Of a DNA stretch of 64,000 nt, positions 9,486 through 46,522 are shown piece by piece. The notes under the pieces are model-generated. The model was given only the letters and a program-made list of their open reading frames with translations, had not been told where the DNA came from and ran no database searches. Position numbers and translations under genes: made by a program. The stretch is taken from assembly GCA_030685065.1 (NCBI GenBank), contig JAUXQH010000095.1:142855-206854 (forward strand), in the 5' to 3' direction. Every line of letters begins with the position of its first letter. The first letter of the stretch is position 1. The stretch comes from Pseudomonadota bacterium (lineage in GTDB: Bacteria; Myxococcota_A; UBA796; SXON01).

Positions 9486-9860
9486 ATGGATCGACCGCCC
9501 TGCGCCGGCCTGTGGATGACCCCGATGGTCCATGTGGACGGTGACCTCACCACGTGCTGCCTGGACGAGCACCTCGTCAACCGCCTCGGCAACGTGCGGG
9601 ACACCCCGCTGGCCGAGCTCTGGAAGGGGCCCACGGTGCACGCCTGGCGCCTCGCCCACGCCGAGGGGCGCTTCGCGGAGAGCGGGCCCTACTGCATGCG
9701 CTGCAACTGGCGGAGCGCGGGCGAGATGCCCCGAGAAGACGTGCTTGCCTGGCTCGACCAGACAGGCGAGAAGAGTCCTGCGGCCCGTCGGCGCGCGCGA
9801 GCTACCCCCGGTCCCGCCGAGAAGGCTACGCCCACCGCCACTCCAACGAAGGTGAAATGA
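9486..9860 (+). CDS. orphan SPASM/twitch-like Cys-rich ORF (remnant or stand-alone C-terminal domain of a radical SAM enzyme)
   Basis: CAGLWMTPMVHVDGDLTTCCLDEHLVNRLGNVRDTPLAELWKG...GPYCMRCNW aligns at ~40% identity, with 6 of 7 Cys conserved, to the C-terminus of rSAM D (18532..19620: CSCFWKSPVIGWDGTVTTCTRDNRFTNALGNVADMPFSTLWWG...LPVCASCF). Its stop overlaps the ABC ATPase start (ATGA 9857-9860). Confidence 0.5.
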   Translation: MDRPPCAGLWMTPMVHVDGDLTTCCLDEHLVNRLGNVRDTPLAELWKGPTVHAWRLAHAEGRFAESGPYCMRCNWRSAGEMPREDVLAWLDQTGEKSPAARRRARATPGPAEKATPTATPTKVK

Positions 9861-10819
9861 CCCCCGCCATCCGCACGGAGAAGCTCGCCAAAGTCTACCG
9901 CTCGGGCTTCTGGCGCATCCCCTACACCGGCCTGGTCGATCTCGATCTCGAGGTGCCCGAGGGCACGAGCTTCGGCTTCATCGGGCCCAACGGCGCCGGT
10001 AAGACGACGGCCATCAAGACCCTGATGTCGCTCCAAAAGGCCACCGGCGGCCGCGCGTGGATCCACGGCATCGAGGTTCCGAACCCCGAATCCCGCCGTC
10101 GCGTGGGGTTCCTGCCGGAGCGGCCCTACTTCTACGAGCACCTCACCGCGCGGGAATTCCTCGACTTCTACGGCCGCCTCTGCGAGGTGCCGTCGGCGGA
10201 GCGCGCTCGTCGCATCGACAAGCTGCTCGAGCGGGTCGACCTCGGCCGGTTCCGCGACGTTCCGCTCGGAAAGTTCTCGAAGGGCATGCTCCAGCGGGCC
10301 GGGCTCGCCCAGGCGCTGATCGCCGAGCCGGACCTGCTCGTGCTGGACGAGCCGATGAGCGGCCTCGACCCGCTCGGGCGCGTGCTCGTGCGGGACCTGA
10401 TCCTGGAGGAGCGCCGCGCCGGCCGCACCGTCTTCTTCTCCAGCCACGTGCTCACCGACGTGGAGGCCCTCTGTGATCGCGTCGCCATCGTGGTCGGCGG
10501 CAAGCTGCGGGGCCAGGGCACCGTGCAGGAGCTGCTCGGAGAGACCGTCGCCCACGTGGACTGCACGTTCGCCGACGTAGCCGAGCGCCCCGGTGGACTC
10601 GAGGATGGAACCCTCGGGGGCCTCGTCGGTGCCCCGGGCGGGCGCGTCACCCACCGCCTCGACGCGGACCAGGTCGATCGCTGGATCGACGCGGCACGCA
10701 AGGCCGGCGGCACCGTCATCAGCGTCATCCCGGCGCAGCGCACCCTCGAGCACGTGCTGCTCGACGAGGTCGAGCGCGCACGCCCCGTGAACACGAAGCA
10801 CCTGGGGGTGCTCGCATGA
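9857..10819 (+). CDS. ABC transporter ATP-binding protein
   Basis: GFIGPNGAGKTT (Walker A), LSKGMLQRAGLAQAL (signature), LLVLDEPMSGLD (Walker B). AAGGTG SD. The upstream part of track ORF 9554..10819 is Arg-rich junk. Confidence 0.9.
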   Translation: MTPAIRTEKLAKVYRSGFWRIPYTGLVDLDLEVPEGTSFGFIGPNGAGKTTAIKTLMSLQKATGGRAWIHGIEVPNPESRRRVGFLPERPYFYEHLTAREFLDFYGRLCEVPSAERARRIDKLLERVDLGRFRDVPLGKFSKGMLQRAGLAQALIAEPDLLVLDEPMSGLDPLGRVLVRDLILEERRAGRTVFFSSHVLTDVEALCDRVAIVVGGKLRGQGTVQELLGETVAHVDCTFADVAERPGGLEDGTLGGLVGAPGGRVTHRLDADQVDRWIDAARKAGGTVISVIPAQRTLEHVLLDEVERARPVNTKHLGVLA

Positions 10820-11583
10820 ACCAGATCCTCGCCGTCGCGACCAACACCTTCCGCGAAGCGGTTCGCGACAAGGTGCTCCACAGCATCCTGTTCTTCGCGG
10901 TGCTGCTCCTCTGCGTGTCGCTCGTGATGCAGGAGATCACCATCGGAGACCAGGCCAAGGTCGTGCGCGGCGTCGCGCTCGGCGGCATCTCGCTCCTCGG
11001 CGGGCTCATCGCGATCTTCCTCGGGGTCGGCCTCGTGTGGAAGGAGATCGACAAGAAGACGATCTACACCCTCGCGAGCAAGCCCCTCGCGCGCTGGCGG
11101 CTCCTGCTCGGAAAGTACCTCGGCCTCTGGTTCACCCTCGCGGCCGAGGTCGGAATCCTCGCGCTGCTGTACACGGTGATCGTCGGGTCGCAGCAAGGGT
11201 TGCCGTCGGCCGACATCTACCTGTCGATCGCGATGCTGATGATGGAGCTGACGCTGCTCTGCGCGTGGGCCACGCTGTTCTCCACGTTCGCGGCGCCCAC
11301 CACCGCCTCGGCCTACTCGCTGTGCATCTACCTGATCGGCCACTTCACGGACGACCTCGCGCTGTTCGGCCAACGCTCGGACGACCCGACGTTCAAGGCC
11401 CTGTGCGAGGTCCTGTACCGGGTGCTCCCCAACCTCGAGCTCTTCAACATCCGCGCCGAGGCCGTGCACGGCATCGCGGTTCCCGGGGCGGAGATCGCGT
11501 GGGCCCTGGCGTACGGCGGCGGCTATACCGCGGTCGTGCTCGTGCTCGCGATGGTCGTGTTCGAGCGTCGCGACTTCGCGTGA
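10816..11583 (+). CDS. ABC-2 family transporter permease
   Basis: 255 aa with six predicted TM segments. ATGA overlap with the ATPase stop at 10816-10819. Confidence 0.8.
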   Translation: MNQILAVATNTFREAVRDKVLHSILFFAVLLLCVSLVMQEITIGDQAKVVRGVALGGISLLGGLIAIFLGVGLVWKEIDKKTIYTLASKPLARWRLLLGKYLGLWFTLAAEVGILALLYTVIVGSQQGLPSADIYLSIAMLMMELTLLCAWATLFSTFAAPTTASAYSLCIYLIGHFTDDLALFGQRSDDPTFKALCEVLYRVLPNLELFNIRAEAVHGIAVPGAEIAWALAYGGGYTAVVLVLAMVVFERRDFA

Positions 11584-11639: not shown

Positions 11640-12704
11640 ATGGCCGACCTCGCCGCCCGCCACGCGCGGGTCGCGGACGACGTCGAGCGGCGCGTCCTCG
11701 CGGTGCTCCGCTCGGGCCGGTACATCGGCGGCCCGGTCGTCACCGAGGCCGAACGTCGCCTCGCGACCCTCTTCGGCTACGCGCACGGCGTGGGCGTCAA
11801 CAGCGGCACCGACGCCCTGATCTACGCGCTGATGGCCATGGGGATCCAGCCGGGCGACGAGGTGATCGTCCCCGCGGTCACCTTCTTCGCCACGGCCGAG
11901 GCCGTCGGCCGCATCGGCGCCATCCCCGTGGTGGCCGACGTGCGGGACGACCTCCCCCTGCTCGACCCCGGCACGCTCCCCCTGACCGCCCGCACGCGCG
12001 CCGTCATCGCCGTCCACCTGTTCGGCGAGCCCTGCCCGCTCCCCGCGCTGCCGGTGCCGGTCCTCGACGATGTGGCCCAGGCGGCCGGCGCGTCGCCACC
12101 GGCGCGCACCGGATCCGTCGGAGCGGCCAGCTTCTACCCCACCAAGACCCTCGGGGCCGCGGGGGACGGCGGCATCGTGCTCGCCGACGATCCCGCCATC
12201 GCCGACGCCGCGCGCAAGCTCGCCTCCCACGGCATGCCCGCCCCCTACGTGCACGACCGCGTGAACGGCCACTTCGGCGCCAACAGCCGCCTCGACGCGA
12301 TGCAGGCCGCGGTCCTGCTCGGGCACCTCGCCGATCTCGACGCGCGCCTGGCCCGCCGCCGCGCCATCGCCGCGGCCTACGACGCCGGCCTCCCGGAGGA
12401 CGTGCGCCCCCTTCCCCGCGGCCCCGGACACCCCGTACACCACTACGTCGTGCGCACCCCCGGTCGCGACGCACTGGCCGCGGCCCTCGCCGCCGCCGAG
12501 ATCGAGACCGCCGTGTACTACCGCCGCCCGCTCTCGTCCGAGCCCGCGCTGGCTGGCGGACACCCCGCGGGCGCCGTCCCCAACGCGGTGCGCTATTGCG
12601 CGGAGGCCCTCGCCTTGCCGGTGCACGAATGCCTGACGGATGGGGACGTCGACCGCGTCCTCGACACGATACGCCGTGCCCATTCCCGCACTCGAGCTGA
12701 ATGA
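11640..12704 (+). CDS. DegT/DnrJ/EryC1/StrS family PLP-dependent aminotransferase
   Basis: ...GVNSGTDALIYALMAMGI.PGDEVIVPAVTFFATAEAV...SFYPTKTLGAAGDGG..., with the catalytic Lys in the FYPTK context. Real start at ATG 11640; the track ORF upstream of it is junk. Confidence 0.85.
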   Translation: MADLAARHARVADDVERRVLAVLRSGRYIGGPVVTEAERRLATLFGYAHGVGVNSGTDALIYALMAMGIQPGDEVIVPAVTFFATAEAVGRIGAIPVVADVRDDLPLLDPGTLPLTARTRAVIAVHLFGEPCPLPALPVPVLDDVAQAAGASPPARTGSVGAASFYPTKTLGAAGDGGIVLADDPAIADAARKLASHGMPAPYVHDRVNGHFGANSRLDAMQAAVLLGHLADLDARLARRRAIAAAYDAGLPEDVRPLPRGPGHPVHHYVVRTPGRDALAAALAAAEIETAVYYRRPLSSEPALAGGHPAGAVPNAVRYCAEALALPVHECLTDGDVDRVLDTIRRAHSRTRAE

Positions 12705-13555
12705 CTGCTGACCTCGCCTACTGGATCTTCGCCGCCTTCGCGGGCGTGTTCGGGCTGCTCTTCGGCTCGTTCCTCAACGTCTGCGTCGCGCGCATGCCAG
12801 AGGACCGCTCGGTGGTGTGGCCCGGCTCGGCCTGCCCCACGTGTGGCACCGCGATCAAGCCCTACGACAACGTGCCCGTGCTCGCGTGGATGTGGCTCGG
12901 CGGCAAGTGCCGGGCCTGCAAGCAGCCGATCTCGGCGCTCTATCCCACGGTCGAGGCGCTCTTCGGCGTGCTCACCTTCCTGCTCTTCCGCCGTGTCATC
13001 CCCGACCTCGCCTACATCGACACCGCCTACCTCGCGGCCTTCGTCTGGTACGGTTGGTTGTTGTTCGCGCTGGTGGCGCTCACCTTCATCGATCTGCGCC
13101 ACTACATCATCCCCGACGAGTTCAGCATCTACTCGGTGCCCGTCGGCGTCGCGGGTGCAGCCTTGCTCGGTTGGCTCGGGTACACCGGCGCCCCCACGTG
13201 GCAGGGTTCCGTGGTGGGGGCATTGGTGGGGGGCGGATTTCTCGCCGCGGTGATCGGCCTGTATTGGCTGGTGCGGCGGCAGGAAGGCATGGGCATGGGG
13301 GACGTGAAGCTCCTCGCCATGCTCGGCGCCTGGTTTGGTCCCGTCGCGATCTTCCCGATCCTGATGATGGCCTCGATCGCGGGCAGCATCGTCGGGGTCA
13401 CCCTGGCGATCAGCCGCCGATCGGGCCTCCAGCTCGCCCTCCCCTTCGGCCCGTTCCTGGCGCTCGCGGCGGCGATCTGGCTCTACGCCGGGCGGGTGCT
13501 GGAGCCGGCCGTGACCCTGCGGGTCGGCGCGTTGCTGGAGCTCTTCGGGAGCTGA
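12701..13555 (+). CDS. prepilin peptidase (A24 family, PilD/GspO type with N-terminal Cys4 zinc-binding motif)
   Basis: CPTCG...CRAC tetracysteine, polytopic membrane protein, catalytic region IIPDEFSIY...GMGMGDVKLLA. ATGA overlap with the aminotransferase stop at 12701-12704. Confidence 0.85.
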   Translation: MTADLAYWIFAAFAGVFGLLFGSFLNVCVARMPEDRSVVWPGSACPTCGTAIKPYDNVPVLAWMWLGGKCRACKQPISALYPTVEALFGVLTFLLFRRVIPDLAYIDTAYLAAFVWYGWLLFALVALTFIDLRHYIIPDEFSIYSVPVGVAGAALLGWLGYTGAPTWQGSVVGALVGGGFLAAVIGLYWLVRRQEGMGMGDVKLLAMLGAWFGPVAIFPILMMASIAGSIVGVTLAISRRSGLQLALPFGPFLALAAAIWLYAGRVLEPAVTLRVGALLELFGS

Positions 13556-14064: not shown

Positions 14065-14433
14065 ATGGGATACCCCCTTTCGGCCCGAGGCCCCCAAATG
14101 TCCGAACGCCCCGATCGCATCTCCGCCGCGCGCGACTATGTCGCCAAGAAGCCAACCGACCGCTTCGGGCTCTACGCGCTCGCGATGGAGCTTCGCAAGC
14201 TGCGCTCGTGGGAGGAGTGCTTCGTCACCTTCGGGGCCCTCCTCGAACACCACCCCGACTACGGCGCGGGTTGGTACCACTACGCGATGGCAAAGAAGGA
14301 GTCGGGCGACCGCGCGGGGTGCGTCGTGGCCCTGAACAAGGGGCTCGGCGCGTGCGCCCGGAGCGGGGACACCAAGACGCGGGCCGAGCTCCAGGGCGTG
14401 CTCGACGAGCTGGAGATGCTCGACGAGGAGTGA
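14065..14433 (+). CDS. hypothetical small protein (TPR-like helical); alternative start ATG 14098 (MSERPD...)
   Basis: ...FGLYALAMELRKLRSWEECFVTFGALLEHHPDYGAGWYHYAMAKKESGD..., a helical-repeat-like pattern. Confidence 0.5.
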   Translation: MGYPLSARGPQMSERPDRISAARDYVAKKPTDRFGLYALAMELRKLRSWEECFVTFGALLEHHPDYGAGWYHYAMAKKESGDRAGCVVALNKGLGACARSGDTKTRAELQGVLDELEMLDEE

Positions 14434-14480: not shown

Positions 14481-15206
14481 CTACGGATGCTCCCACGCGG
14501 GGCCTGTGTCGCCGCCCTCGTCGAGCACCCCGTCGGCGATGGCGAACACGGCGAGCTGGGTGTAGAGCGTCGTGAGGATGTCGAGGTTGTCGCAGTGCTG
14601 GGCGCGGAACGTGCCCGCGTATTCGGCGGGCGCGAAGTCGAACGTTCCGGTGAGCACGGTGTCCTTGCGCGCGACGTCGACCCACGCCGGCGCGCCGATG
14701 CCGATCTCGTGCTCCTCCTCGAGCACCTCGATGCCGCCGTCGAGCGCGTAGTCGAGACCCGCCCCCTCGGCGACAGCGGCCTCGACCACCTCGTACCAGG
14801 CCCCCGTCGCAACGCGCCCGTCCGTCTGGACGTACTGCGCCATCGCGGCGGTCTCCCACGCGTCCGCGTGCATAGAGTAGCGGCCGAGCCAGTCCTCCTC
14901 GGGCCCGAGCGCGAGCGAGAAGGCGATGGTGATGCCGCCCTCGCGCGAGAGCATGGTCGCCTGCTGGGCGCTCCAGTAGAGCAGATCGGTGTCGGCGGCC
15001 GGCGTCAGGGGGTCGCCGTCGTCGTCCGCGGGCCAGCACGGGAGCGTGGAGTTGGCGAGCAGGACGAAGGCCTGCCGGGCCCCGTAGAGCTCGAGCCACA
15101 GCGCGCTGTCCGGGAGGAAGTACAGCGCCGTGCGGATGGGCTCCGAGCCGTCCGCGGTGGTGAACGTCCCCATGCTGCTGCAGCCGAGCAGCGCCAGCAT
15201 CAACAT
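14481..15206 (-). CDS. lipoprotein, hypothetical (Trp/acidic-rich), last gene of the rSAM B-A operon
   Basis: Starts MLMLALLGCSSMG (signal peptide plus LLGC lipobox). Its ATG overlaps the rSAM A stop by 1 nt (TGATG at 15204-15208). The N-terminal 200 codons of track ORF 14481..15809 are Arg-rich junk. Confidence 0.7.
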   Translation of the reverse strand: MLMLALLGCSSMGTFTTADGSEPIRTALYFLPDSALWLELYGARQAFVLLANSTLPCWPADDDGDPLTPAADTDLLYWSAQQATMLSREGGITIAFSLALGPEEDWLGRYSMHADAWETAAMAQYVQTDGRVATGAWYEVVEAAVAEGAGLDYALDGGIEVLEEEHEIGIGAPAWVDVARKDTVLTGTFDFAPAEYAGTFRAQHCDNLDILTTLYTQLAVFAIADGVLDEGGDTGPAWEHP

Positions 15207-15970
15207 CAGAAGCTCCCGGGCGGGCGGATGGACGGCGAGAGGATCCCCACCTCGTGGCAGGCGCTCGCGTGCAGCGCGTCCGAACGGGCCTGGTCGCCGC
15301 TGTTGAGGCGGCGGAGGTAGATGGCGTCCGCATCGAACGGGGGCCAATCCGCGGTGAGGTTCCAGCGGCGCCCTCCCTTGGGGGCAACCGCATCGAGCAC
15401 CGCGCCCCAATGCCGGACGAAGTCCGATACCTCGTGGCGGTTCTCGTCCTGCACCACGATGGCGAGGTGGGCCACGGGGCGCTCCGCGCCGAGCGCGCTC
15501 CGGATCGCCAGGAACCGCTCGATGTTGCGGTACACGAGCGCGTGCTTGTCGGAGCCCTTCACCTCCGCGTAGGCCTCGGGGCTGAACGCGTCGATGGAGA
15601 AGTGGATGGCGGTGAAGGTGTCCGGCGCGAGGCCGGGGGTCCGCGCGAGGCGGACGAGCCGCGCGGCCCGCTCGGGGGAGAGGATCACCGCGTTGGTGTG
15701 GACCTTGAAGGTCCGGAACAGCGCGTTTCCGGCGTTCGCGGCAAAGGCGTACTCGACGAACGCATCGAAGCGCGGGTGGAGCGTCGGCTCCCCGAGCCAG
15801 TGGGGGCACAGCGCCACGTCACCCATCCCGCGGAGCCCCTGGAGGGAGCGCCGCCAGGTGTCGAACGACATGAAGCGCTTGGGGCCCCCGTGCGCGTCGT
15901 CCCGCATCGACTGGCTGCACATCTTGCAGCGGATGTTGCAGTGGTCGGTCAGCTCGAGGTTCACGTTCAT
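15206..15970 (-). CDS. radical SAM protein A (no SPASM domain; paralog of D)
   Basis: MNVNLELTDHCNIRCKMCSQ has the CxxxCxxC motif. HWLGEPTLHP / HTNA / FSIDA blocks match D (FWLGEPLVHP / HTNATHL / LSLDAA). The start ATG overlaps the rSAM B stop (ATGA at 15967-15970). Confidence 0.85.
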   Translation of the reverse strand: MNVNLELTDHCNIRCKMCSQSMRDDAHGGPKRFMSFDTWRRSLQGLRGMGDVALCPHWLGEPTLHPRFDAFVEYAFAANAGNALFRTFKVHTNAVILSPERAARLVRLARTPGLAPDTFTAIHFSIDAFSPEAYAEVKGSDKHALVYRNIERFLAIRSALGAERPVAHLAIVVQDENRHEVSDFVRHWGAVLDAVAPKGGRRWNLTADWPPFDADAIYLRRLNSGDQARSDALHASACHEVGILSPSIRPPGSF

Positions 15971-17082
15971 GCGCTTGGACTCGGGGCCACGCGGGGCAGC
16001 CGCGCCCGGATCGCGCGCTCGTGCGTGAGGATGTTCTCGGAGCACTCGACGCAGCGCCCGGTGGGGCGGCCCGCGCGCATGCCGGCGCGGATGTCGAGCA
16101 AGGTGGGATCGGCCTCCCAGACGGTGGCGACGGGCGCGTCGGCCACGGAGCCCCCGGTGCCCGCGAGCACGCAGCAGGGCGAGGTGCGGCCGTCGGACTG
16201 GACCACGAGGTAGTGCCACGCCTTGAGGCAGGGGGCGGCGGCGAGGCCCTCGGCGACCGGGGACGGCCCGGCCGGAACGGCGGCTCCCGTAACGACGGCA
16301 GGCGCGCGGGCGCCGCGGCGCAGGGTGTCGGCGCGGCGGAAGGCGGCGAGCGTGGTGACGACCCCGAGCCGGTCGGCCTCGGCGATGGCCTCCTCGACGC
16401 GTGCAGCCAGGCGCGCCTCCTCCGCGGGACCGAGCGCGAGGGCCCGTTGCTCGGGGCGGTAGGCCACGAGGGCGTCGACGTCGACGCGGTAGCAGCCGAG
16501 CGCGGCCGCTAGCCGCACGACGCCGGCCAGCTCGTCGACGTTGCGGTTCGTGAGGACCATGTGGAGGCCGAGGCGGGGAAGCCCGCCCGTGCCCTGATCG
16601 CGGAGCCGGCGCAGGCGACAGAGGGCCGACACGCTCTTCCTGAACGCGCCGGGGCGCCCGCGCAGCGCGTCGTGCGTGGCGGCCTCGGCGCCGTCGATGG
16701 ACACGTGCACCTCGTCCCAGCCGAGCGCCACGAGGCGATCGGTCACCGCGTCGAGCCGCGTGCCGTTCGTGGTGAGGAACCCCTCCATCCCATGCGCTTT
16801 CACGCGCTCGAGGAGGAGCGGCGTGGCGGCCGAGAGCAGCGGCTCACCGCCCCCGAGGATCGCGACGCGGCGCACGCCCATCGCGGCCGCCTCGTCTACG
16901 ATCGCGAGCTGGCGGGCCACGGAGAGCTCGTTCACCGCGGGGCGGTGGCGGTCGGTGGTGTCGCAGAACGCGCAGTCGAGGTTGCACCGGAGGGTGGGGT
17001 ACAGCTCGAGCGTCCACGGGCCGGGGGTTCCGCCCTGGTCACGCGCCTGGATTCGCGCCGCGATCGCGTCGAGCTCGTCCAT
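15967..17082 (-). CDS. radical SAM/SPASM domain protein B (paralog of E)
   Basis: Start placed at MDELDAIAARIQ..., with a GGTGGGG SD-like run upstream. A longer start at ~17154 would collide with the divergent lipoprotein ATG at 17153. YPTLRCNLDCAFCD is CxxxCxxC; GGGEPLL, TTNGTRL and VSIDGAEAATHDALRG match the same blocks in E. The C-terminal Cys-rich SPASM reads CLKAWHYLVVQSDGRTSPCCVL...CVECSENI. Confidence 0.8.
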   Translation of the reverse strand: MDELDAIAARIQARDQGGTPGPWTLELYPTLRCNLDCAFCDTTDRHRPAVNELSVARQLAIVDEAAAMGVRRVAILGGGEPLLSAATPLLLERVKAHGMEGFLTTNGTRLDAVTDRLVALGWDEVHVSIDGAEAATHDALRGRPGAFRKSVSALCRLRRLRDQGTGGLPRLGLHMVLTNRNVDELAGVVRLAAALGCYRVDVDALVAYRPEQRALALGPAEEARLAARVEEAIAEADRLGVVTTLAAFRRADTLRRGARAPAVVTGAAVPAGPSPVAEGLAAAPCLKAWHYLVVQSDGRTSPCCVLAGTGGSVADAPVATVWEADPTLLDIRAGMRAGRPTGRCVECSENILTHERAIRARLPRVAPSPSA

Positions 17083-17152
17083 CGCCCCACCGTACCACCG
17101 CCCGGACCACCCGGGCGTACCGCCGGCCCCGGTTTGGCGGTAGCATTCGGCC
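17083..17152. promoter_or_regulatory. 70-bp divergent intergenic region shared by the rSAM B-A-lipoprotein operon (-) and the lipoprotein/repeat-protein/rSAM D-E operon (+)
   Basis: Inferred from gene geometry only; I could not recognise a -35/-10 motif at this GC content. Confidence 0.3.
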
Positions 17153-17611
17153 ATGCGCTCCTTCCTGCCCGCCGTTTCCCTGCTGGCCCTCTGCTCCACC
17201 ACGCTCCTCGCCTGCACCGGCGTCCCCTCGACCGACGCGGACGACACCGCGGTCACCACCGGCTTCTGCGCGACGCTCGCGGACGGGGGCCTCACCGAGA
17301 CCGAAGCGGAGGGGGGAAACGGCACGAGCGGCATCCTCAGCCTCAGGGTGCTCACGGACGAGTCGGAGGATCCGCGCGACCCGCTCTATGTGGCGTTCAA
17401 GGCGTACACGCTCGAGAACCTCGAATCCGGGGGCGTGAAGACCCTCGGCAAGACCACGGGCGATGGCCTCGTCGAGGAGCTGCTCGGCGCCGGCAGCTGG
17501 ACCTTCAGCGCCGCCTACACGCGCGGCAGCCTCACCTGCCTCGCGCAGATGGAGGCCCTGGTGGAGCCGAACACCACCACCTACGGCTGCCCCGTCATGG
17601 ACTGCCCGTAG
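17153..17611 (+). CDS. lipoprotein, hypothetical
   Basis: MRSFLPAVSLLALCSTTLLAC is a signal peptide plus lipobox. Acidic/Thr/Gly-rich mature part ending in ...TTYGCPVMDCP. Confidence 0.65.
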   Translation: MRSFLPAVSLLALCSTTLLACTGVPSTDADDTAVTTGFCATLADGGLTETEAEGGNGTSGILSLRVLTDESEDPRDPLYVAFKAYTLENLESGGVKTLGKTTGDGLVEELLGAGSWTFSAAYTRGSLTCLAQMEALVEPNTTTYGCPVMDCP

Positions 17612-17715
17612 CCGAACGCCCGCGCGCCGGGCCGAACGCCGCGTGATGGAGCTTCGCTGATCCGTTCGAATGCTCCGACGGGGCTGCGCGTCGTACTGCC
17701 AGACAACGAGCAGTC

Positions 17716-18459
17716 ATGCGCACCCCCCTCCTCGCCCTCCTCGCAGCCCTCCTCCTCGCCCCCTCCGCGGCCAACGCGGGCCACGGACACCACAGCGGCG
17801 TCTACGTCAGCGCCCCGTCCGTCCGCATCGTCATCGACCCCTGGTCCCCCTCCTACGCCCCCGCCTACCGCTCGGGGTACTCCTGGGTTCCCGGGTTCTG
17901 GAGCCACCACGGCGACTGGCAGCCCGGCCACTGGGTGCCCGTCGTGTCGCGCGCCGGCTACGCCTGGGAGCCCGGCTACTGGAACGGCCGCACCTACGTA
18001 GACGGCTACTGGCGCTCCGCGGCGCGCTCCGGGTACGGCTGGCGCACCGGCTACTACTCCCGGGGCGTCTGGGTCCGGGGTGACTGGAGCTACGGCCGCT
18101 CGTCGCACTCCTCGAGTCACTACTCGGGCCACTACTCGGGCCACAAGTCGGGGTACGGCGAGCGCGCCGAGGACGCCCGGGAGCGCACCGAAGACTACCG
18201 CGAGGCGCGGGAGGATCGCTCGGAGCGCCACGAGGACCGCGAGGAGCGCCGCGAAGACCGCGACGACGACCGCGACGACGACCGCGGTGGCCGGTCGGAA
18301 GGCCGCGGCGAGAGCTCCAGTGGCCGCTCCGAGGGCCGCGGCGAGAGCTCCAGTGGCCGCTCCGAAGGCCGCGGCGAGAGCTCCGAGGGCCGCGGCGAGC
18401 GCTCCGAGGGCCGCGGCGAACGCGGCGAGAGCAGCGGCGGCCGCAGCCGCACTCGGTAG
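17716..18459 (+). CDS. secreted low-complexity repeat protein (W/Y-rich GYxWxPGxW repeats, His-Xaa-Ser-like run, acidic RED block, 4x SGRSEGRGESS tandem repeats)
   Basis: Signal peptide MRTPLLALLAALLLAPSAANA. Repeats YSWVPGFWSHHGDWQPGHWVP / GYAWEPGYWNGRTYVDGYW / GYGWRTGYY. Run SHSSSHYSGHYSGHKSGY. Then REDREERREDRDDDRDDDRGGRSEGRGESSSGRSEGRGESS.... Sits directly upstream of rSAM D on the same strand. Confidence 0.65.
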   Translation: MRTPLLALLAALLLAPSAANAGHGHHSGVYVSAPSVRIVIDPWSPSYAPAYRSGYSWVPGFWSHHGDWQPGHWVPVVSRAGYAWEPGYWNGRTYVDGYWRSAARSGYGWRTGYYSRGVWVRGDWSYGRSSHSSSHYSGHYSGHKSGYGERAEDARERTEDYREAREDRSERHEDREERREDRDDDRDDDRGGRSEGRGESSSGRSEGRGESSSGRSEGRGESSEGRGERSEGRGERGESSGGRSRTR

Positions 18460-18531
18460 CGCAGCCGGATCGTAGGGGCCGCCCCCTACGAAGCGACCAG
18501 AACCACCGCATGCCCCGGCTCACGCTGGGGT

Positions 18532-19620
18532 ATGCTCGTTTTTGTGCGCACCTCCGCCGCGTCGCGGGCCAAGAGCTCCATGCAGGGCAGCTACCTGGTC
18601 CTCGAGACCACGAACACGTGCAGCCTCGCGTGCGTGCATTGCTCGGTGTCCGAGGCGGGCCATCCGCACCACGCGCGCACCGGGTTCCTGCCGCTTCCCA
18701 CCGCCGAGGCCGTGTTCGCCGACCTGCGCGCGGTCGGCGCCCGCTTCGACACGCTGATCCTGTTCTGGTTGGGGGAGCCGCTCGTCCACCCGGCGTTCGG
18801 GCCGATCTACCAGGCCGCGCTCCGCACCGCGGCCGCCGGGGTGTTCGGCAAGCTGGAGCTGCACACCAACGCCACCCACCTCACCGCTGACAAGGTGCGC
18901 GTGGCGCTCAACCTCGCGCCGATCCCGCAGGTGTGGCACCTCTCGCTCGACGCCGCCACGCGCCCCACCTACCGCGCCGTGAAGGGGGCCGATCGCTTCG
19001 ACCTGGTCGAGACGAACGTGCGCGGGTTCCTCGACGCGAAGGCCGCGCGCGGCGCCCGGTGGCCGCGGCCGGTGTTCCAATTCATCGTGTCCGAGAACAA
19101 CGCGGCCGAGGTCGCGCCGTTCCGCTCCCGGTGGGAGGCGGCGTGTCGGTCGCGCGGGCTCCCGGTGCGAACCGCGGCGCAGGTCGTGCCCCCGGGGGAG
19201 GACGCCGTGGTGTTCTTCCGCCAGCTCGATTGCCCGACGCCCGCGGAGCAGGCCCGCCAGAACGCCGTGTTCCGCGACACGATGGCGGGGGCGGGGATCG
19301 CCCTCCCGCGAGAGGACCGCTCGCCCACCACCATCGCGGACCAGAACGTGGCCGTGTGCTCGTGCTTCTGGAAGAGCCCCGTCATCGGGTGGGACGGCAC
19401 GGTGACGACGTGCACGCGCGACAATCGCTTCACCAACGCGCTCGGGAACGTGGCGGACATGCCCTTCTCCACGCTGTGGTGGGGCAGCGAGATGGCGGCG
19501 CGGCGGAGCCGGGTGGCCCGGGTCGACTACAGCGGGCTCCCCGTGTGCGCGTCGTGCTTCATCCCGCGCTCCTCCAACTCGACCGACATCACCCCCGCCG
19601 AGATCGAGGCGCACGGATGA
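18532..19620 (+). CDS. radical SAM/SPASM domain protein D (paralog of A); alternative start ATG 18580 (MQGSYLVLETTNTC...)
   Basis: LETTNTCSLACVHCSV is the CxxxCxxC motif. The C-terminal SPASM reads CSCFW...TTCTRDNRF...LPVCASCF. The stop overlaps the E start (ATGA 19617-19620). Confidence 0.85.
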   Translation: MLVFVRTSAASRAKSSMQGSYLVLETTNTCSLACVHCSVSEAGHPHHARTGFLPLPTAEAVFADLRAVGARFDTLILFWLGEPLVHPAFGPIYQAALRTAAAGVFGKLELHTNATHLTADKVRVALNLAPIPQVWHLSLDAATRPTYRAVKGADRFDLVETNVRGFLDAKAARGARWPRPVFQFIVSENNAAEVAPFRSRWEAACRSRGLPVRTAAQVVPPGEDAVVFFRQLDCPTPAEQARQNAVFRDTMAGAGIALPREDRSPTTIADQNVAVCSCFWKSPVIGWDGTVTTCTRDNRFTNALGNVADMPFSTLWWGSEMAARRSRVARVDYSGLPVCASCFIPRSSNSTDITPAEIEAHG

Positions 19621-20627
19621 GCCGCCTCACGCGCGCCGCGGTGACCGCCGTCCTGGGGCAGGCGCGGCTACGCCCCGCGCTGGACAAGCCGGTGCAGGTG
19701 CACCTCTCCGTCACGGACCGCTGCTTCCTCCCGTGCCTGCACTGTGACATCTGGAAGAACGAGACGGTCGACCTTCCCGAGCAGGTGTGGGCCGACACCA
19801 TCGATGGCCTCGCGCAGTGGCTCGGCCCGGCGGCGATGAACTTCGTGGGCGGCGAGCCGCTCCTCCGCAAGGATCTCGAGCGGCTCATGGCGCGGGCGAC
19901 GCGCCTCGGCTTCACCGTCACGTTCAACACCAACGGTTGGTTGTTGACAGAAAAACGAGCGCACGCGCTCGCGGACGCCGGCGTGAGCATCGCCTACGTG
20001 TCGATCGACGGCGCGACCGCCGCCACGGTCGACCACTCGCGTGGCCGCGCCGGCTCGTGGAAGAAGGCCGTCGAAGCCTGTGACTTGCTGGACAAGGTGC
20101 CGAACCCGCGCGTGGTCGTGACTTGTGTGCTCTCCGGTCACAATGCCAGGGAAATCCCCGAGCTGCTCCGTTGGACCAAGGGCCGCGGCTACGAATTGGT
20201 CGTGCAGCCGCTGTACCAGAACTTCGGCGCCAACGCCCACGATCCCGGCTGGTGGCGCCGATCTCCCCTGTGGCCCACCGATCTGGGCGCGATCGACGCC
20301 GCGATCGACGTGTTGGTCGACGAGCGGCGCAACGAGTCCCAGGTGTGCAACCCGGTCGAGCAGCTCGAGGCGTTCAAGGGGTACTTCCGGAACCCCTCCG
20401 TCTACAACGGCGAGGTGTGCAAGGCCGGCCACTCGGACATCGCGTTCGATCCGATGGGCAACGTGCGCTTGTGCTATTTCCTGGAGCCGGTCGGCAACGT
20501 GGCGGACGGGCGCTCACTCCCCAAGGTGTGGAACGCGGTCGCGACGATGCGGCGGCGGCACGAGGTGAACACGTGCACGCGGTCGTGCAACTTGTTGAAC
20601 TGCAACTTCGATCGGGGCGCCGGCTAG
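19617..20627 (+). CDS. radical SAM/SPASM domain protein E (paralog of B)
   Basis: VHLSVTDRCFLPCLHCDIW is CxxxCxxC. FVGGEPLL, NTNGWLL, VSIDGATAATVDHSRG. The C-terminal Cys cluster reads CKAGHSDIAFDPMGNVRLCYF...CTRSCNLLNCNF. The upstream 228 codons of track ORF 18933..20627 are an off-frame extension. Confidence 0.85.
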   Translation: MSRLTRAAVTAVLGQARLRPALDKPVQVHLSVTDRCFLPCLHCDIWKNETVDLPEQVWADTIDGLAQWLGPAAMNFVGGEPLLRKDLERLMARATRLGFTVTFNTNGWLLTEKRAHALADAGVSIAYVSIDGATAATVDHSRGRAGSWKKAVEACDLLDKVPNPRVVVTCVLSGHNAREIPELLRWTKGRGYELVVQPLYQNFGANAHDPGWWRRSPLWPTDLGAIDAAIDVLVDERRNESQVCNPVEQLEAFKGYFRNPSVYNGEVCKAGHSDIAFDPMGNVRLCYFLEPVGNVADGRSLPKVWNAVATMRRRHEVNTCTRSCNLLNCNFDRGAG

Positions 20628-20706: not shown

Positions 20707-21369
20707 ATGTCCAACGCCGCCGCCGCCGATCCCGTCCCCGCCCCCGCCGAAGCAGACGATGGCGGCGCGCGGCGCTTCGAGCTGCTCTCCGGGCTCACGC
20801 TCGCGCTGCTCGCGGCGGTCCTCGCGGTGGTCGATCTCGGCGGTGGCGCCGCCGGCGACGACGAGATCATCGGCACGAACGAGAAGTCCTCGCTCTACCA
20901 GTGGTACCAGAGCAAGAGCATCAAGCAGGCGATCGTCGAGCAGCAACAGGGCCTGCTCACGGCGCTCCTCGACGCGGGCGCGGTGGCCCCCGGCGGCATC
21001 GACGCGGTTCGCGCCCAGATCGCCGCCGCGGATGAGGACGTGAAGCGCTACGACGCCGAGAAGCGCGAGCTGCTCCGCGGGTCCGAGGCGGTGGGGCCCG
21101 CGGGCCAGGTGATGGAGGTGGGCGGCGAGAAAGGCAAGATCGTCGGCACCGAGGTGTGGGAGGTCACCCTCGCCACGCTCGGGGAGGCGGGCCAGAAGTT
21201 CGACCTCTCGACGTTGTGGCTCCAGCTCTCCCTGGTGCTCGGCGCCGTGAGCCTGGTGCTGCACGCCCCGCGGCTCAAGATGGCGTTCTACGCCGCGATG
21301 GCGCTCGGCGGCGTCATCGGGACGGCGTACGGCGTGATGGCGTTCCAGGTGATGATGTCGTTGGGGTAG
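20707..21369 (+). CDS. DUF4337-like membrane protein
   Basis: ...NEKSSLYQWYQSKSIKQAIVEQQQG...AQIAAADEDVKRYDAEK... followed by two C-terminal TM helices, the pattern I recall for DUF4337. Confidence 0.6.
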   Translation: MSNAAAADPVPAPAEADDGGARRFELLSGLTLALLAAVLAVVDLGGGAAGDDEIIGTNEKSSLYQWYQSKSIKQAIVEQQQGLLTALLDAGAVAPGGIDAVRAQIAAADEDVKRYDAEKRELLRGSEAVGPAGQVMEVGGEKGKIVGTEVWEVTLATLGEAGQKFDLSTLWLQLSLVLGAVSLVLHAPRLKMAFYAAMALGGVIGTAYGVMAFQVMMSLG

Positions 21370-21388: not shown

Positions 21389-22804
21389 TCACCCCACCCC
21401 GAACGCCCCGAGCACCCACGGCCCCGTGATCGCGAGCAGCGCGCAGCCGCCGATCAACAACACGAAGCCGGGAAGGGCGAGATCCTGGGCGCGCGCCCCC
21501 GCGCCCACCGCCATCGCGTTGGGCGGCGTGCTCACCACGAACGGCATCCCGAAGGACGCCGCGAGCGCCACGAGCACGGGCGCGGTCGGGATGTCGGGGA
21601 CCACCGCGATCGCGAGCGGCACGAGCAAGGCGGCGGTGCCGGTGTTGCTCATGATCGACGACAGCACCGCGCTCGCGAAGAGCAGTGCCCCGAGTCGGAA
21701 CCCGGACGGCTGATCGGGGCTCGCCAGCGTGGCCGCGAGCGGGGTCAGGAGGTTCGTGGCCTCCACCAGCCGCCCGAGGCCGATCCCACCGGCGATGAGG
21801 AGGAGCGTCGACCAGTCGACCTGGCGCAAGCGCTCCGCCGGCACCAGCGCGCTCCCGAACAACACCGCCGCGAGCGCGAGGGACACGAGGGGCGCGTCCA
21901 CCCCATGGAGCGGCTCGGCGAGCCACGCGAGGATCGCCGCCGCGGCGACGACGCCGACGAGCACCGGGCGTTGCGTCGGGGCGCCGTCGGCGGGGGGGAG
22001 CGGCGGCGGGAGCGCCTCGGTGACGACCTCCGAACCGACGCGGTGCACCACGAGGAGGAGCACCACCGCGAACGCGAGCGAGGCCGCCACGAGGGGGACC
22101 GCGAACGCCATCCACGACACGAAGGGGATCGGCACGTCCATCGACGCGATGGCGATGGCGTTCGGGCCGCTGCCGATCGGCGTCGCCATGCCCCCCAGAT
22201 TGGCGCCCAGCGCCACGGCGACCAGCACCGCGCGGCGGAGCCGACCGTCCTCCGGGCAGAGCGGCCGTACGCACGCGAACATCAACGCCGCCGCGGCGAT
22301 GTTCGACATCCACATCGACAGGAACGCGGTCGTGGTGGCGAGCCCCGCGATCAGGCGGCGGGGCCTTCCCCGCGTGTACCGAACCGCCGCTCCGGCCAAC
22401 GCCTGGTCGATCCCGTGCACGCGCGCGGCCTCGCCGAGCACGAACCCCCCGAAGAACAGGGCCAGCACGGGGTCAGCCATCCACCCCAGCACGACGCGCG
22501 GCTCGAACGCCGGCAGGGCCAGGGGGACGGCCACGAGCAGCAGGAGCGTGGGGACGAAGCCCGGCACGACCTCGCCGAGCCACAACGCGAGGCAGAGGCT
22601 GGCGACGATGCCCGCCCGCGCCGCCGTGGGATCGGCAAACGCGGCCAGGCTCGCGCCGGCGCCCACCGCCGCAGCCACGAGGGTGAGCCCCCACCGGAGC
22701 GCGGACGGTCGCGACGCAGCCGACGACAAGGGCGCGGGGGACACGGGCGCGGGCGGGTTCGGCGCGGGCGGCCTGGCCGCGGGGGGCGTGGGTGCGAGGG
22801 GCAT
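21389..22804 (-). CDS. anion permease / DASS (SLC13) or ArsB/NhaD-superfamily transporter
   Basis: 471 aa with at least 12 TM helices and the duplicated ...MSNTGTAALL.PLA / ...MWMSNIAAAALM hairpin motifs typical of the ArsB/DASS family. Confidence 0.75.
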   Translation of the reverse strand: MPLAPTPPAARPPAPNPPAPVSPAPLSSAASRPSALRWGLTLVAAAVGAGASLAAFADPTAARAGIVASLCLALWLGEVVPGFVPTLLLLVAVPLALPAFEPRVVLGWMADPVLALFFGGFVLGEAARVHGIDQALAGAAVRYTRGRPRRLIAGLATTTAFLSMWMSNIAAAALMFACVRPLCPEDGRLRRAVLVAVALGANLGGMATPIGSGPNAIAIASMDVPIPFVSWMAFAVPLVAASLAFAVVLLLVVHRVGSEVVTEALPPPLPPADGAPTQRPVLVGVVAAAAILAWLAEPLHGVDAPLVSLALAAVLFGSALVPAERLRQVDWSTLLLIAGGIGLGRLVEATNLLTPLAATLASPDQPSGFRLGALLFASAVLSSIMSNTGTAALLVPLAIAVVPDIPTAPVLVALAASFGMPFVVSTPPNAMAVGAGARAQDLALPGFVLLIGGCALLAITGPWVLGAFGVG

Positions 22805-24640: not shown

Positions 24641-24960
24641 TTGCTGCGATCGAGGCCAGATTGCGGCGGAGGGGCGCCGGGCGACCGGGGCGGAGCGCGC
24701 TGTCACGCCGGCTCTGGCGACGCCACCGCGCCGCCAGAGCGCGGACGCGGCCCTTCGGCCGGTCGTCATCATGGGAGGCGTTCCATAGCCAGGATACGCA
24801 CCGACAGACGCCGATACGCACGCCGATCGCGCTTTGAGCGAGTAGCTCCTTGATACGACGCCAGAGCCGGAGGATCGATGGAACTCACCTCAAGGTCAGC
24901 CGACTCGCCCATCACCACGCTCTACATCACTGGCGGTACCTGGTGGGACGGAGAAGCGTC

Positions 24961-26514
24961 ATGGTAATCCTTGTTTGGGCGCTCGTTCTCGGCTGCACCG
25001 GCGGCCCGAAGCCGTCCGACTCCAGTGCGGAAGCGGACACGGACACGGACACGGACACGGACGCGGACACGGACACGGATGGCGACTCCGATTCGGATAC
25101 AGACACCGACACCGATGCGGACACCGACGCGGATTCAGACACGGACACGGAGCCGACGCCCGACGCCGACAGCGATGGGTACGACGCGATCGAAGCGGGG
25201 GGCGACGATTGTGATGACGACAATGCATTCACCTACCCAGGCGCGGTCGAGTACTGCGACACGGTAGACCAGGACTGTGACGGTGAGCCCTTGGGGATCG
25301 GGCAGTGCGCCACACTCATTCCCGCGGGCGCTGGGGGGACGCTCCTCATAGACACCCCCGTGTTCAACGCCCTCGTGGGCCTCGTGGGGGACCTCACCGG
25401 CGATGGTATTGACGACGTGCTGCGGACGCGCCCGGACCAGGGGGATGTGCTCATTTACGCGGGGGGGCCAATCGATGCGCCGTTCGGCGAGGAATTGGAA
25501 GGCGTGTGGCATCGCGTCGTCGAAAACGCCACCTTGGGGGGCGTACTCCGAGGCGGTGACATCAACGGCGATGGCTGGGAAGATTTGCTCACCCTGAGTT
25601 CTTGGGGTGAGGGCGCACAGGCGTTGTACGGGCCCTTCGAGGGCGGCGGCGCCACCTCGTCGATGTATGGGGATGGTGTCGCGTGGGCCGATGGTTTCAA
25701 CGTCTCGAGCCCCGTGTTCTCGGGCGTGGACACTGATGGCGATGGGCGGGCTGACATGGCCACCATCGAAAACGTGTTCAAGGTCGAGACCGATGTCGCG
25801 TTTCAGGTGTATCTTGGCGGGGAGCACGAGACACCTTGCACGCTACTGGAAAGCCGAGGTGGTTTGGCGGCGACCCCCATAGGAGACGGGGATGGCGACG
25901 GCTTTCCTGAGACCGCGTGGCAGGCCAGCGCGCTGTGGATTAGCTCGGGGGCGCATTTTCGCGAGGGTTGCGAAGGCGATCTCGAGAGTCACTCCATGGG
26001 CTGGCGGGACGGCGGCGTCGTGGCCATTCCCGCAGCACGCCTCGGCGATTGGACTGGTGACGGAGTGGAAGAATGGGTGCTCACCCTACCAGGGGTAGGG
26101 GATGAGGGCGAGGAAGGCCTATGGGTGCTGTCCGCCGACGTTGCCGTTTCCGGAGCCTTCTCGACGGACGACGCCTTAGGGAGCTGGATCCTCCCACCCT
26201 CCTATTCGGGCTTCGACCGCCCGCATGCGCTCGACCTCGATGGCGACGGTGTAAACGAGCTCATCTTCGGCGGAGAGTACGGCTACGACGTCATCCGTGG
26301 GGGCACGCCGCTCTCGATCGCGGCCGACCTTCCCGCCAACCGCCTTAGCTACGATGGGGACTCGATTTGTGGCTTCACCCCGTGCGAAGGCGACTTCAAT
26401 GGAGATGGGTTTGACGACCTCGCCGTCGTCGAATGGGCCACCGACTTCGAGAACACCCACGTCTGGATCATCCCCGGCTTCGATGTGCCCTGGGATGACG
26501 TGAGCCGGTGGTAG
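24961..26514 (+). CDS. lipoprotein with Asp-Thr tandem repeats, a MopE-like Cys-rich putative metal-binding motif and FG-GAP/VCBS-like repeats
   Basis: MVILVWALVLGCTGG is the signal peptide plus lipobox. (DT)n repeats are encoded by gacacggac x many. CDDDNAFTYPGAVEYCDTVDQDCDG is the MopE-like motif. There are 4 DxNGDGxxD FG-GAP-like loops. The track start at 24850 is junk; I chose ATG 24961. Confidence 0.75.
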   Translation: MVILVWALVLGCTGGPKPSDSSAEADTDTDTDTDADTDTDGDSDSDTDTDTDADTDADSDTDTEPTPDADSDGYDAIEAGGDDCDDDNAFTYPGAVEYCDTVDQDCDGEPLGIGQCATLIPAGAGGTLLIDTPVFNALVGLVGDLTGDGIDDVLRTRPDQGDVLIYAGGPIDAPFGEELEGVWHRVVENATLGGVLRGGDINGDGWEDLLTLSSWGEGAQALYGPFEGGGATSSMYGDGVAWADGFNVSSPVFSGVDTDGDGRADMATIENVFKVETDVAFQVYLGGEHETPCTLLESRGGLAATPIGDGDGDGFPETAWQASALWISSGAHFREGCEGDLESHSMGWRDGGVVAIPAARLGDWTGDGVEEWVLTLPGVGDEGEEGLWVLSADVAVSGAFSTDDALGSWILPPSYSGFDRPHALDLDGDGVNELIFGGEYGYDVIRGGTPLSIAADLPANRLSYDGDSICGFTPCEGDFNGDGFDDLAVVEWATDFENTHVWIIPGFDVPWDDVSRW

Positions 26515-38910: not shown

Positions 38911-38971
38911 CGGAGAGCCTAGCCCAGGACGCGCGCGAAGGGGCGCGCGATCCGCCGCATCGATGGCCCGG

Positions 38972-45607: not shown

Positions 45608-45615
45608 GCGGGGAA

Positions 45616-46446
45616 TCAAAAGCCACCCCCTTCGATGACGCGGTAGCGGGGCCCGGAGCGATACCGGACCTGCTGGACCAGGCCGAGGGTCGAGGCGACG
45701 GTGGCGTGGTCGAGCGCGACCGGCTCGGGCATCTCCCACAACGAGCGGAGGCTGATCGTGAGGTCCCCGATCTGCTGGGCGAGCACCAGCTTCTGGGCCT
45801 CCGAGGGGCGCACGCCCACCGTGATGGTGGCGCTGTTGCCGAGCAGCTCCGAGGGGGATGGCTCCTTCTGGACCATCGGCTGGCCCTCGGGGGGCATGGT
45901 CACCACGTCCCGCGTCGTGATGCGGCCGATGTCGTCGACCACCGAGAGCACCCACACGTCCTGCATGACGGTGACGGTGCGCACGTCCGACTTCTCTCCG
46001 GTGCCGAAGTCGAAGGTGCCGAGGATGTCGACGTGGTTGCCGGGGCGGATGTGCCCGCCGACCGCGTTGAACACCGACACGTCGAGCGAGATGGCGCGCA
46101 GGCCCTTCGGCACGTAGAGCGCCAGCCCCGCCTCGTCGGCGGTCACGAGCTTGGTCGCGACGATCTGCTCCCCCGTGAGGATGGGGACGGCGCTGATCTG
46201 ATCGCGGATCAGCTCGGTCGACGTGAGCGCCTTGGGCTGTTGCCAGCGGCGCGGCACCTCCACGAGCTCCACCATGGTCTCGTCGAGCCGCACGTTGTCG
46301 AGGATGTCGCGCTTGGCCACGAGGGTCATCATCGGAGCGGTCTCGTAGAGGAGGTCCTGCTCGCGCTGGTGCACGTAGCGGCACTGCGCGAAGGTCGCGA
46401 CGAGCGCGACCACCAGGGCGAACAGGAACGCGCGGGGGTTCTTCAA
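45616..46446 (-). CDS. Flp pilus assembly protein CpaB/RcpC (SAF domain)
   Basis: N-terminal TM MKNPRAFLFALVVALVATFAQ, then a CpaB-like SAF/beta domain. The stop lies 8 bp from the secretin start. Confidence 0.75.
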   Translation of the reverse strand: MKNPRAFLFALVVALVATFAQCRYVHQREQDLLYETAPMMTLVAKRDILDNVRLDETMVELVEVPRRWQQPKALTSTELIRDQISAVPILTGEQIVATKLVTADEAGLALYVPKGLRAISLDVSVFNAVGGHIRPGNHVDILGTFDFGTGEKSDVRTVTVMQDVWVLSVVDDIGRITTRDVVTMPPEGQPMVQKEPSPSELLGNSATITVGVRPSEAQKLVLAQQIGDLTISLRSLWEMPEPVALDHATVASTLGLVQQVRYRSGPRYRVIEGGGF

Positions 46447-46522
46447 ACGGGCCTCGACGGGACAGAGAGGGCGAGTCTACGACATCTCGAGCGTGTGCGC
46501 TGCGAGCCTGTCGCGCGCCGTG

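Follow-up and report, generated by a model that had tools for sequence, protein, structure and literature searches.

A conserved, undescribed multi-radical SAM gene cluster and a separately encoded SPASM-type domain in a Myxococcota-type lineage

Closest described systems

The subject of this study is a cluster of genes for radical S-adenosylmethionine (rSAM) enzymes in a 64,000-nucleotide stretch of DNA (the window; G+C content about 71%) from contig JAUXQH010000095.1, positions 142,855 to 206,854, of the Pseudomonadota bacterium assembly GCA_030685065.1. The cluster is a real, conserved and undescribed multi-rSAM system. Its four enzymes, rSAM A, B, D and E, are encoded as two coupled pairs, B with A and D with E, beside genes for two lipoproteins (lipoC and lipoN) and a secreted repeat protein (rep). 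A separate gene, sSPASM, encodes a stand-alone SPASM/twitch Fe-S domain in an operon with an ATP-binding cassette (ABC) exporter of the ABC-2 type, a DegT-family aminotransferase and a PilD-like prepilin peptidase.

Parts of this arrangement recall described systems. In the 2-deoxystreptamine branch of butirosin biosynthesis, a twitch rSAM dehydrogenase (BtrN) is combined with a DegT-family aminotransferase (BtrS). The present cluster differs in having no aminocyclitol genes and in having four paired rSAM enzymes, an ABC-2 exporter and lipoproteins, and sequence similarity to BtrN is negligible (13 bits). Similar to the anSME-sulfatase and QhpD-QhpC systems, cytoplasmic SPASM/twitch rSAM enzymes are encoded beside genes for exported proteins, with no recognition element of the type used for ribosomally synthesized and post-translationally modified peptides (RiPP recognition element, RRE). 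The Qhp system has, in addition, an ABC exporter and a leader peptidase. Unlike either system, the family scores here are low (QhpD 15-24 bits against a cut-off of 453), the lipoproteins carry an ordinary lipobox, the sulfatase motif is absent and the exporter is of the ABC-2 type.

The His-Xaa-Ser system shares with this cluster the tandem rSAM genes and a neighbouring protein with a few His-x-Ser units; however, rep cannot be counted as an HxsA, and its presence is not conserved. The family of N-terminal-twitch rSAM proteins, NF033640, is matched by sSPASM in its N-terminal twitch region (27 bits) and weakly by A and D in its core. Relatives carry the SPASM domain N-terminally, C-terminally or at both ends, and double rSAM fusions occur among them. 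In the window, by contrast, the domain is a free-standing gene, and the scores are below the cut-off of 170. The operon of sSPASM also resembles, in gene order, the Myxococcus xanthus genes MXAN_5782-5779, which encode in order the accessory factor PilG, the ATPase PilH, the permease PilI and PilD (PMC3546991, PMC3924187, PMC6060248). Both consist of a small accessory protein, an ABC ATPase, an ABC-2-type permease and a prepilin peptidase, in the same order. The operon in the window differs by the insertion of a DegT gene and the absence of an adjacent pilA, and a link to rSAM enzymes has not been described for M. xanthus.

Samples and searches

The species count comes from a scan of the genome collection with one genome per species, in which relatives of A came up in 168 species; 80 of these relatives were retrieved. 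The window proteins were mapped onto the retrieved loci, with iterated profiles for the fast-evolving proteins. Conservation is given relative to the loci with enough flanking sequence for the feature in question (58, 61, 69 or 78). The family libraries were NCBIfam, Pfam, PADLOC and Rfam, and the PDB was used for sequence searches. Fusion partners were surveyed in 30 large relatives (at least 494 aa).

Organization and conservation of the cluster

The features of the cluster are as follows.

14481-15206, minus strand: lipoC, 241 aa; lipoprotein coupled to A by TGATG
15206-15970, minus strand: rSAM A, 254 aa; radical SAM core only
15967-17082, minus strand: rSAM B, 371 aa; radical SAM and SPASM-type domain
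17153-17611, plus strand: lipoN, 152 aa; small lipoprotein divergent from B
17716-18459, plus strand: rep, 247 aa; secreted W/Y-rich repeat protein with a charged tail
18508-18545, plus strand: hairpin and U-run with a 12-bp stem, overlapping the D start codon (ATG 18532-18534)
18532-19620, plus strand: rSAM D, 362 aa; radical SAM and twitch-type domain
19617-20627, plus strand: rSAM E, 336 aa; radical SAM and SPASM-like Cys-rich C-terminus

The B/A and D/E junctions are ATGA overlaps (15967-15970 and 19617-19620), A and lipoC meet in a TGATG (15204-15208), and 70 bp separate B from lipoN. A preliminary description of this DNA had placed four rSAM genes here, B before A on the minus strand and D before E on the plus strand, with two lipoprotein genes flanked. 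Genes and junctions lie exactly at those positions, the sequence motifs quoted are present, and each rSAM pair is a real coupled unit. The lengths of B, A, lipoC and lipoN are the same in an independent gene call from a Logan contig of the same organism. An alternative start for B at 17154 was rejected, since the homologues and the independent gene call begin at the position equivalent to 17082.

All 80 retrieved relatives of A are from metagenome-assembled genomes (MAGs), mostly from lakes, rivers and seas, and many carry a Myxococcota or Deltaproteobacteria label, UBA796 among them. Many lake MAGs with the cluster are titled ‘Klebsiella pneumoniae’ or ‘Enterobacterales’ (L006, L007, L010, L017, L036-L038 and others), presumably placeholder labels of the submitters. 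Both A and D have homologues at 58% identity or more in hundreds of protein clusters, all from metagenomes or MAGs and often on the same contigs. In 62 of 69 loci the gene for B directly precedes that for A, most commonly with a 4-nt overlap, and D and E stay coupled across loci. The layout of the cluster is more than chance, because the same arrangement with its tight junctions recurs across many MAG species.

The lipoprotein neighbours are recurrent. Directly after A, lipoC is found in at least 47 of 78 loci and is missing or replaced in about a third, and lipoN is detected near B in 30 of 58. The lipoproteins have a median identity to the window of 30-43%, compared with 57-65% for the enzymes and sSPASM. 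Two stronger associations are not borne out. The two pairs are not obligately adjacent: only 32 of 58 loci have D/E at a distance of 10 kb or less from B/A, and in one MAG the two pairs are on different contigs (L006 and L086). Nor does the repeat protein always accompany an rSAM pair, being present in only 16 of 58 loci.

The pairs had also been described as two copies of one module, duplicated as a unit, with A paralogous to D and B to E. Identity between A and D is 29% over 247 aa (BLASTP, E 2e-25), and the cross scores of their family hidden Markov models (HMMs), 122-133 bits, are far above the best curated-family score of either (53-59). These two are specific paralogues. For B and E, identity is 30% over 285 aa (E 6e-15), and the cross scores of 56-85 bits do not exceed those of B against AhbD (96) or of E against GeoRSP (90). 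B and E are homologous, with a generic similarity, but are not demonstrably mutual closest relatives. The order of the genes is also swapped, with the B-type gene before the A-type gene in one pair and the A-type gene (D) before the B-type gene (E) in the other. Paralogy is thus retained for A and D, and the duplication of a whole unit is not.

Domains and cysteines of the enzymes

Pfam Radical_SAM (PF04055) is matched above gathering by A, B, D and E, and the CX3CX2C motif is kept within each family (C11/C15/C18 in A, C33/C37/C40 in B, C30/C34/C37 in D and C36/C40/C43 in E). Pfam SPASM (PF13186) is matched above gathering by B, D and sSPASM; E scores 18.9 against 21.5 bits, and A has no match. 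The original assignment of SPASM domains to B and D is confirmed, that to E falls slightly short, and the lack of one in A is borne out, the domain apparently being encoded elsewhere. The enzymes share with the SPASM/twitch subgroup the core motif, a C-terminal auxiliary domain (for A, in trans) and fold similarity to solved members. Homologues of A measure 243-258 aa among the matches listed.

The SPASM-type domain of B contains C285, C303, C304, C344 and C347. Both B and E have five conserved Cys in the C-terminal domain and one further conserved Cys upstream. The conserved auxiliary Cys of D are exactly four (C276, C294, C339 and C342), with a spacing of x17/x44/x2 that is presumably close to that of the BtrN twitch cluster. 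A together with sSPASM has five. Among solved proteins, those closest in sequence to B and E include the sugar-modifying twitch enzymes BlsE, DesII, AbmM and SpeY, and BlsE and DesII are among the top fold matches of D. Sequence searches of the PDB returned nothing meaningful for D or lipoN, only matches with E>0.1 for A, and only generic twitch/SPASM enzymes for B and E.

In all four enzymes the CX3CX2C motif starts at residue 11-36, and the 10-35 residues before it are too few for an RRE domain. No conserved short precursor gene or small open reading frame (ORF) accompanies the rSAM pairs in the loci compared, and lipoN and D are separated by differing genes or by none. With neither an RRE nor a conserved short precursor, the RiPP-like character first suggested for the cluster was abandoned.

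A detached SPASM domain in an exporter operon

The genes of the sSPASM operon, which did not figure in the preliminary description, are listed below.

9486-9860, plus strand: sSPASM, 124 aa; stand-alone SPASM/twitch Fe-S domain (Pfam SPASM 41.8 bits)
9857-10819, plus strand: ABC ATPase (ABCa, DrrA/GldA-like); Pfam ABC_tran; NCBIfam DrrA subfamily 193 bits, below cut-off
10816-11583, plus strand: ABC-2 permease (ABCp); Pfam ABC2_membrane_2, 69.5 bits
11640-12704, plus strand: DegT/DnrJ/EryC1-family sugar aminotransferase; Pfam 265 bits; PseC 155 and ArnB 123 bits, below cut-off
12701-13555, plus strand: prepilin (A24) peptidase, PilD-like; Pfam A24_N_bact and Peptidase_A24

The end of sSPASM overlaps the ATPase gene by an ATGA, and the ATPase and permease genes, like those of DegT and the peptidase, overlap by 4 bp. 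The sSPASM protein is 41% identical to residues 276-342 of D, and A aligns with residues 24-259 of D. Because A and sSPASM align to successive parts of D, the two together correspond to one D-like enzyme, and sSPASM is read as the detached C-terminal domain of rSAM A, encoded 5.3 kb away. Its five Cys (C6, C24, C25, C70 and C73) and the N-terminal RPPCAGLW are conserved across the stand-alone sequences of the loci; an automatic gene call of 111 aa was rejected as too short on these grounds. Among 1.8 billion representative proteins, the closest relatives are likewise stand-alone (88-137 aa).

Fused forms of an A-type core and an sSPASM domain also exist (P0287, P0298 and P0318, from Candidatus Wallbacteria, Muiribacteriota and others), and A-type cores of this kind score 222-250 bits against the A family HMM. 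Double rSAM fusions are found among the relatives, P0334 being a B/E-type enzyme joined to a D-type one, which suggests that the rSAM pairs act together. Five proteins of 530-590 aa (P0263, P0265, P0273, P0290 and P0297) have a SPASM-like domain on the N-terminal side of the rSAM core and a second SPASM domain on its C-terminal side. Some relatives are fused to B12-binding rSAM modules, and the domain order of the family is unusually plastic. The non-rSAM partners in the fusion survey are TPR (5), B12-binding (3), GT4 (2; P0343 and P0374), methyltransferase (1) and CBM11/CIA30 (1; P0367), the GT4 and CBM fusions being remote A/D-type members.

Among the 61 loci with wide flanks, sSPASM lies within 10 kb of A in 34, the permease is present in 33 and the peptidase in 31. 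DegT is found in 27, always between permease and peptidase. About half of the wide loci have the operon as a whole no more than 10 kb from A. In six loci it runs on from B-A-lipoC in the same direction, with sSPASM directly after lipoC.

Known families

No gene of the rSAM cluster reaches a curated NCBIfam cut-off, and all matches are at the level of the superfamily. The best match of B is AhbD (96.2 bits, cut-off 500), followed by NirJ (88.6, cut-off 515) and AhbC (65.8, cut-off 650). That of E is the GeoRSP rSAM protein (89.6 bits, cut-off 400), with 73.8 for AhbD, 73.1 for AhbC and 71.4 for NirJ. PqqE is matched at 61.7 bits by B and 75.4 by E (cut-off 381). The best NCBIfam scores of A and D, 53-59 bits, are to maturase models of the tungsten-enzyme and ‘Geo-metal’ types. 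QhpD (TIGR03906) gives 15.3 bits for A and 24.0 for D (cut-off 453), and none of A, B, D and E scores as an anSME. Similarity to the anti-phage viperin-like pVip of PADLOC is confined to the generic rSAM core (17-56 bits) and is absent for D. Neither lipoC, lipoN nor rep has a family match in NCBIfam or Pfam (for rep at E<=0.01).

With no curated cut-off reached, the Hxs, PQQ, alternative heme, NirJ and QhpD systems are excluded. A check against the known cofactor pathways had been proposed for the cluster; once run, it yielded no strong matches that would contradict its novelty. Literature searches on rSAM or SPASM with Myxococcota, lipoprotein or PilG found nothing relevant, and the proposal of an undescribed system is upheld. 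The suggested analogy to the His-Xaa-Ser system is not. HxsC (TIGR03977) scores 15.9 bits for A (cut-off 267.9) and HxsC4 47.9 bits for B (cut-off 500). HxsB (TIGR03978) is absent from the full match lists of A and D and from the best 25 matches for B and E. The supposed target protein, rep, has three HxSG units and the scattered occurrence noted above.

Lipoproteins, repeat protein and hairpin

The lipoN protein has a canonical lipobox signal (LLAC). Four Cys after the lipobox are conserved in 36 of 36 homologues, as are FC, GG, LGxGxW and a C-terminal CxxxxC among these sequences. No match was found in Pfam, NCBIfam or the PDB. In one locus (L084), a lipoN homologue also lies upstream of D/E.

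In this clade the lipoC signal peptide has 8 residues before the lipobox Cys and an uncharged n-region; that of distant homologues is of normal length (13-19 aa). The start of lipoC is fixed by the conserved C-terminus of A (GSF, stop, then ATG). A longer signal overlapping A was rejected because no start codon lies in frame upstream and the signals of distant homologues are canonical. The ‘NST’ of lipoC was rejected as an N-glycosylation sequon, the third position not always being S/T. Where lipoC is missing, a different, large lipoprotein often follows A. Large lipoproteins recur near the cluster (24850-26514 on the plus strand of the window; 4174-6357 in L001; 10857-13115 in L076), marked by D/T-rich linkers, MopE-type metal-binding motifs and FG-GAP repeats, and it is such proteins that directly follow A in loci without lipoC. 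A further small gene is convergent with lipoC.

14065-14433, plus strand: small TPR-like protein; weak Pfam TPR_14

Its homologues adjoin lipoC in about 19 loci (50-86% identity).

The rep protein has a His-rich start (GHGHH), W/Y repeats of the GYxWxPGxW type, the three HxSG units and a charged tail with tandem GRSEGRGESSS units, and it contains HYSGHYSGHKSG. Similar proteins are found only in closer relatives, such as L084. In other loci the gene at its position encodes an 85-aa protein or a histidine kinase of 1002 aa, or there is no gene there. It is a variable insert and not a core part of the system.

Two hairpins follow the rep stop codon (18470-18545, plus strand). The second, a 12-bp hairpin followed by UCGUUUUUGU, contains the D start codon. 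Stem and U-run are unchanged in the relatives L004 and L005, in contrast to loop and flanks, and an Rfam search of the window, the hairpin included, found no family. From its sequence, the hairpin at 18508-18545 could terminate or attenuate transcription from lipoN-rep, or occlude the D start codon. A start of D at 18580, after a plain terminator, was rejected because ATG 18532 is in frame in L004 and L005 despite indels. With a hairpin and U-run over the D start, a single uninterrupted lipoN-rep-D-E transcript is not assured. Of the plus-strand operon first described, the coupling of D to E stands, and the whole run is not necessarily one operon.

Possible functions

An envelope-directed pathway for the tailoring and export of a small molecule, probably a sugar or glycoconjugate, is tentatively favoured as the role of the cluster. 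The cytoplasmic twitch/SPASM rSAM enzymes would work as two coupled pairs, B with A and sSPASM, and D with E, and would tailor a small, probably sugar-based, substrate. The DegT-family aminotransferase would belong to this pathway too; its task would plausibly be to aminate a keto group produced in an rSAM dehydrogenase step, after the logic of BtrN and BtrS. The ABC-2 exporter encoded with sSPASM may move the product over the inner membrane. In the periplasm or outer membrane, lipoN and lipoC could handle or receive it.

This proposal is made because the operon ties the Fe-S domain of A to an ABC-2 exporter and a sugar aminotransferase, because GT4 and CBM fusions occur in relatives, and because BlsE, DesII, AbmM and SpeY are among the nearest solved relatives of B and E. 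It is further suggested by the resemblance of the four auxiliary Cys of D to the twitch cluster of BtrN, by the double rSAM fusions such as P0334, in which pairs appear to act together, and by the lack of an RRE and a precursor peptide alongside lipoproteins that are weakly and incompletely conserved. ABC-2 transporters of the DrrA/GldA/NodI type are known chiefly for exporting small molecules and glycoconjugates; the ATPase here matches them below cut-off.

Several points weigh against sugar tailoring. All of the evidence on function is by association. Fold and sequence matches are equally good to the peptide- and protein-modifying enzymes SkfB, SuiB and anSME. DegT is absent from some operons (e.g. 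L065, L067 and L071) and its presence may be ordinary synteny, and neither a sugar-nucleotide dehydratase, a glycosyltransferase nor a flippase is conserved in the cluster. TPR is the most frequent non-rSAM fusion partner (5 of 30 scanned) and a TPR gene lies beside lipoC, which point rather to a protein substrate. The tight coupling of A to lipoC is also unexplained by sugar tailoring.

The main rival, which is on balance doubtful, is protein maturation, in which the rSAM pairs would act on one or both of lipoC and lipoN while these are still in the cytoplasm, ahead of Sec/Lol export, and introduce e.g. thioether cross-links or oxidized residues, much as anSME modifies sulfatases and QhpD modifies QhpC. 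That SPASM enzymes can act on exported proteins, and do so without an RRE, has precedents in anSME and QhpD, although the scores to these two families are far below cut-off. The start/stop overlap of A and lipoC and the divergence of lipoN from B are consistent with such a role, as is the lipoN homologue that accompanies D/E in L084, and the TPR fusions and neighbouring TPR gene could recruit a protein substrate. The adjacency of lipoprotein and enzyme is kept in roughly half to two thirds of loci. However, about a third of loci lack lipoC or have a replacement for it, no lipoN is detected in about half and no rep in most, and the lipoproteins evolve much faster than the enzymes. The four Cys of lipoN, including the C-terminal CxxxxC, are conserved in all 36 homologues, in keeping with maturation, but are more simply explained as two disulfides. 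Moreover, ABC-2 exporters are not known to translocate proteins, which counts against lipoprotein maturation.

A pilus-linked accessory system, compatible with both sugar tailoring and lipoprotein maturation, is an unlikely alternative in which sSPASM-ABC-ABC2-(DegT)-PilD would be the counterpart of M. xanthus pilG-pilH-pilI-pilD, and the rSAM enzymes would supply a product for the export, modification or assembly of pilin, e.g. a pilin glycan. The gene order is the same as that of MXAN_5782-5779, as compared by published descriptions only. PilD is translationally coupled to the sSPASM operon, and a Tad-type pilus locus lies at 41.8-46.5 kb of the window. In other bacteria, DegT-family enzymes contribute to the synthesis of pilin glycans, which favours the link. 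Against it, no type IV pilin-like N-terminus is found in any ORF of 50 aa or more in the window or the 83 loci scanned, and no paper was found tying PilG to SPASM. It is more speculative still, and improbable, that sSPASM is the counterpart of PilG itself, such that PilG-type proteins would be detached rSAM Fe-S domains and the cargo of the exporter would be an amino sugar or glycoconjugate tailored by the rSAM enzymes and needed to assemble the pilus or envelope.

A known cofactor or RiPP pathway (AhbC/D, NirJ, PqqE, mycofactocin, HxsB/C or a SPASM RiPP maturase acting on rep) is effectively refuted: B and E have weak generic HMM similarity to AhbD, NirJ, PqqE and MftC (60-96 bits) and rep carries HYSGHYSGHKSG, but all scores are 4- to 15-fold under the curated cut-off, the partner genes PqqA/D, MftA/B, HxsA/D and those of the siroheme branch are not among the annotated neighbours of the cluster, rep is not conserved and there is no RRE.

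Other genes of the window

Tad/Flp-type pilus genes occupy 41864-46473 on the minus strand, including a ParA-fused CpaF-like ATPase (41864-44095) and RcpC/CpaB (45616-46473). A similar ATPase and a T2SSF protein are encoded a few kb downstream of D/E in L086. A sulfatase-family protein is encoded about 17 kb from the rSAM genes (37507-38994, minus strand); sulfatases need a formylglycine-generating maturase. E is followed by a DUF4337 protein (20707-21369, plus strand), kept beside E in only one or two loci, and by an ORF of 471 aa (21389-22804, minus strand) that by eye is likely a membrane transporter.

Significance

The value of the finding lies in a well-delimited gene set for biochemistry. 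An rSAM enzyme that obtained its auxiliary-cluster domain in trans would represent an architecture new to the superfamily and, if the enzymes also act as pairs, this would be a new arrangement for twitch/SPASM radical SAM enzymes. The link of an rSAM domain to an ABC-2/prepilin-peptidase operon gives a concrete hypothesis for the cargo of ‘accessory’ ABC systems. For the organisms themselves, the cluster represents a conserved, probably envelope-related pathway in a widespread uncultured freshwater and marine lineage of the Myxococcota type.

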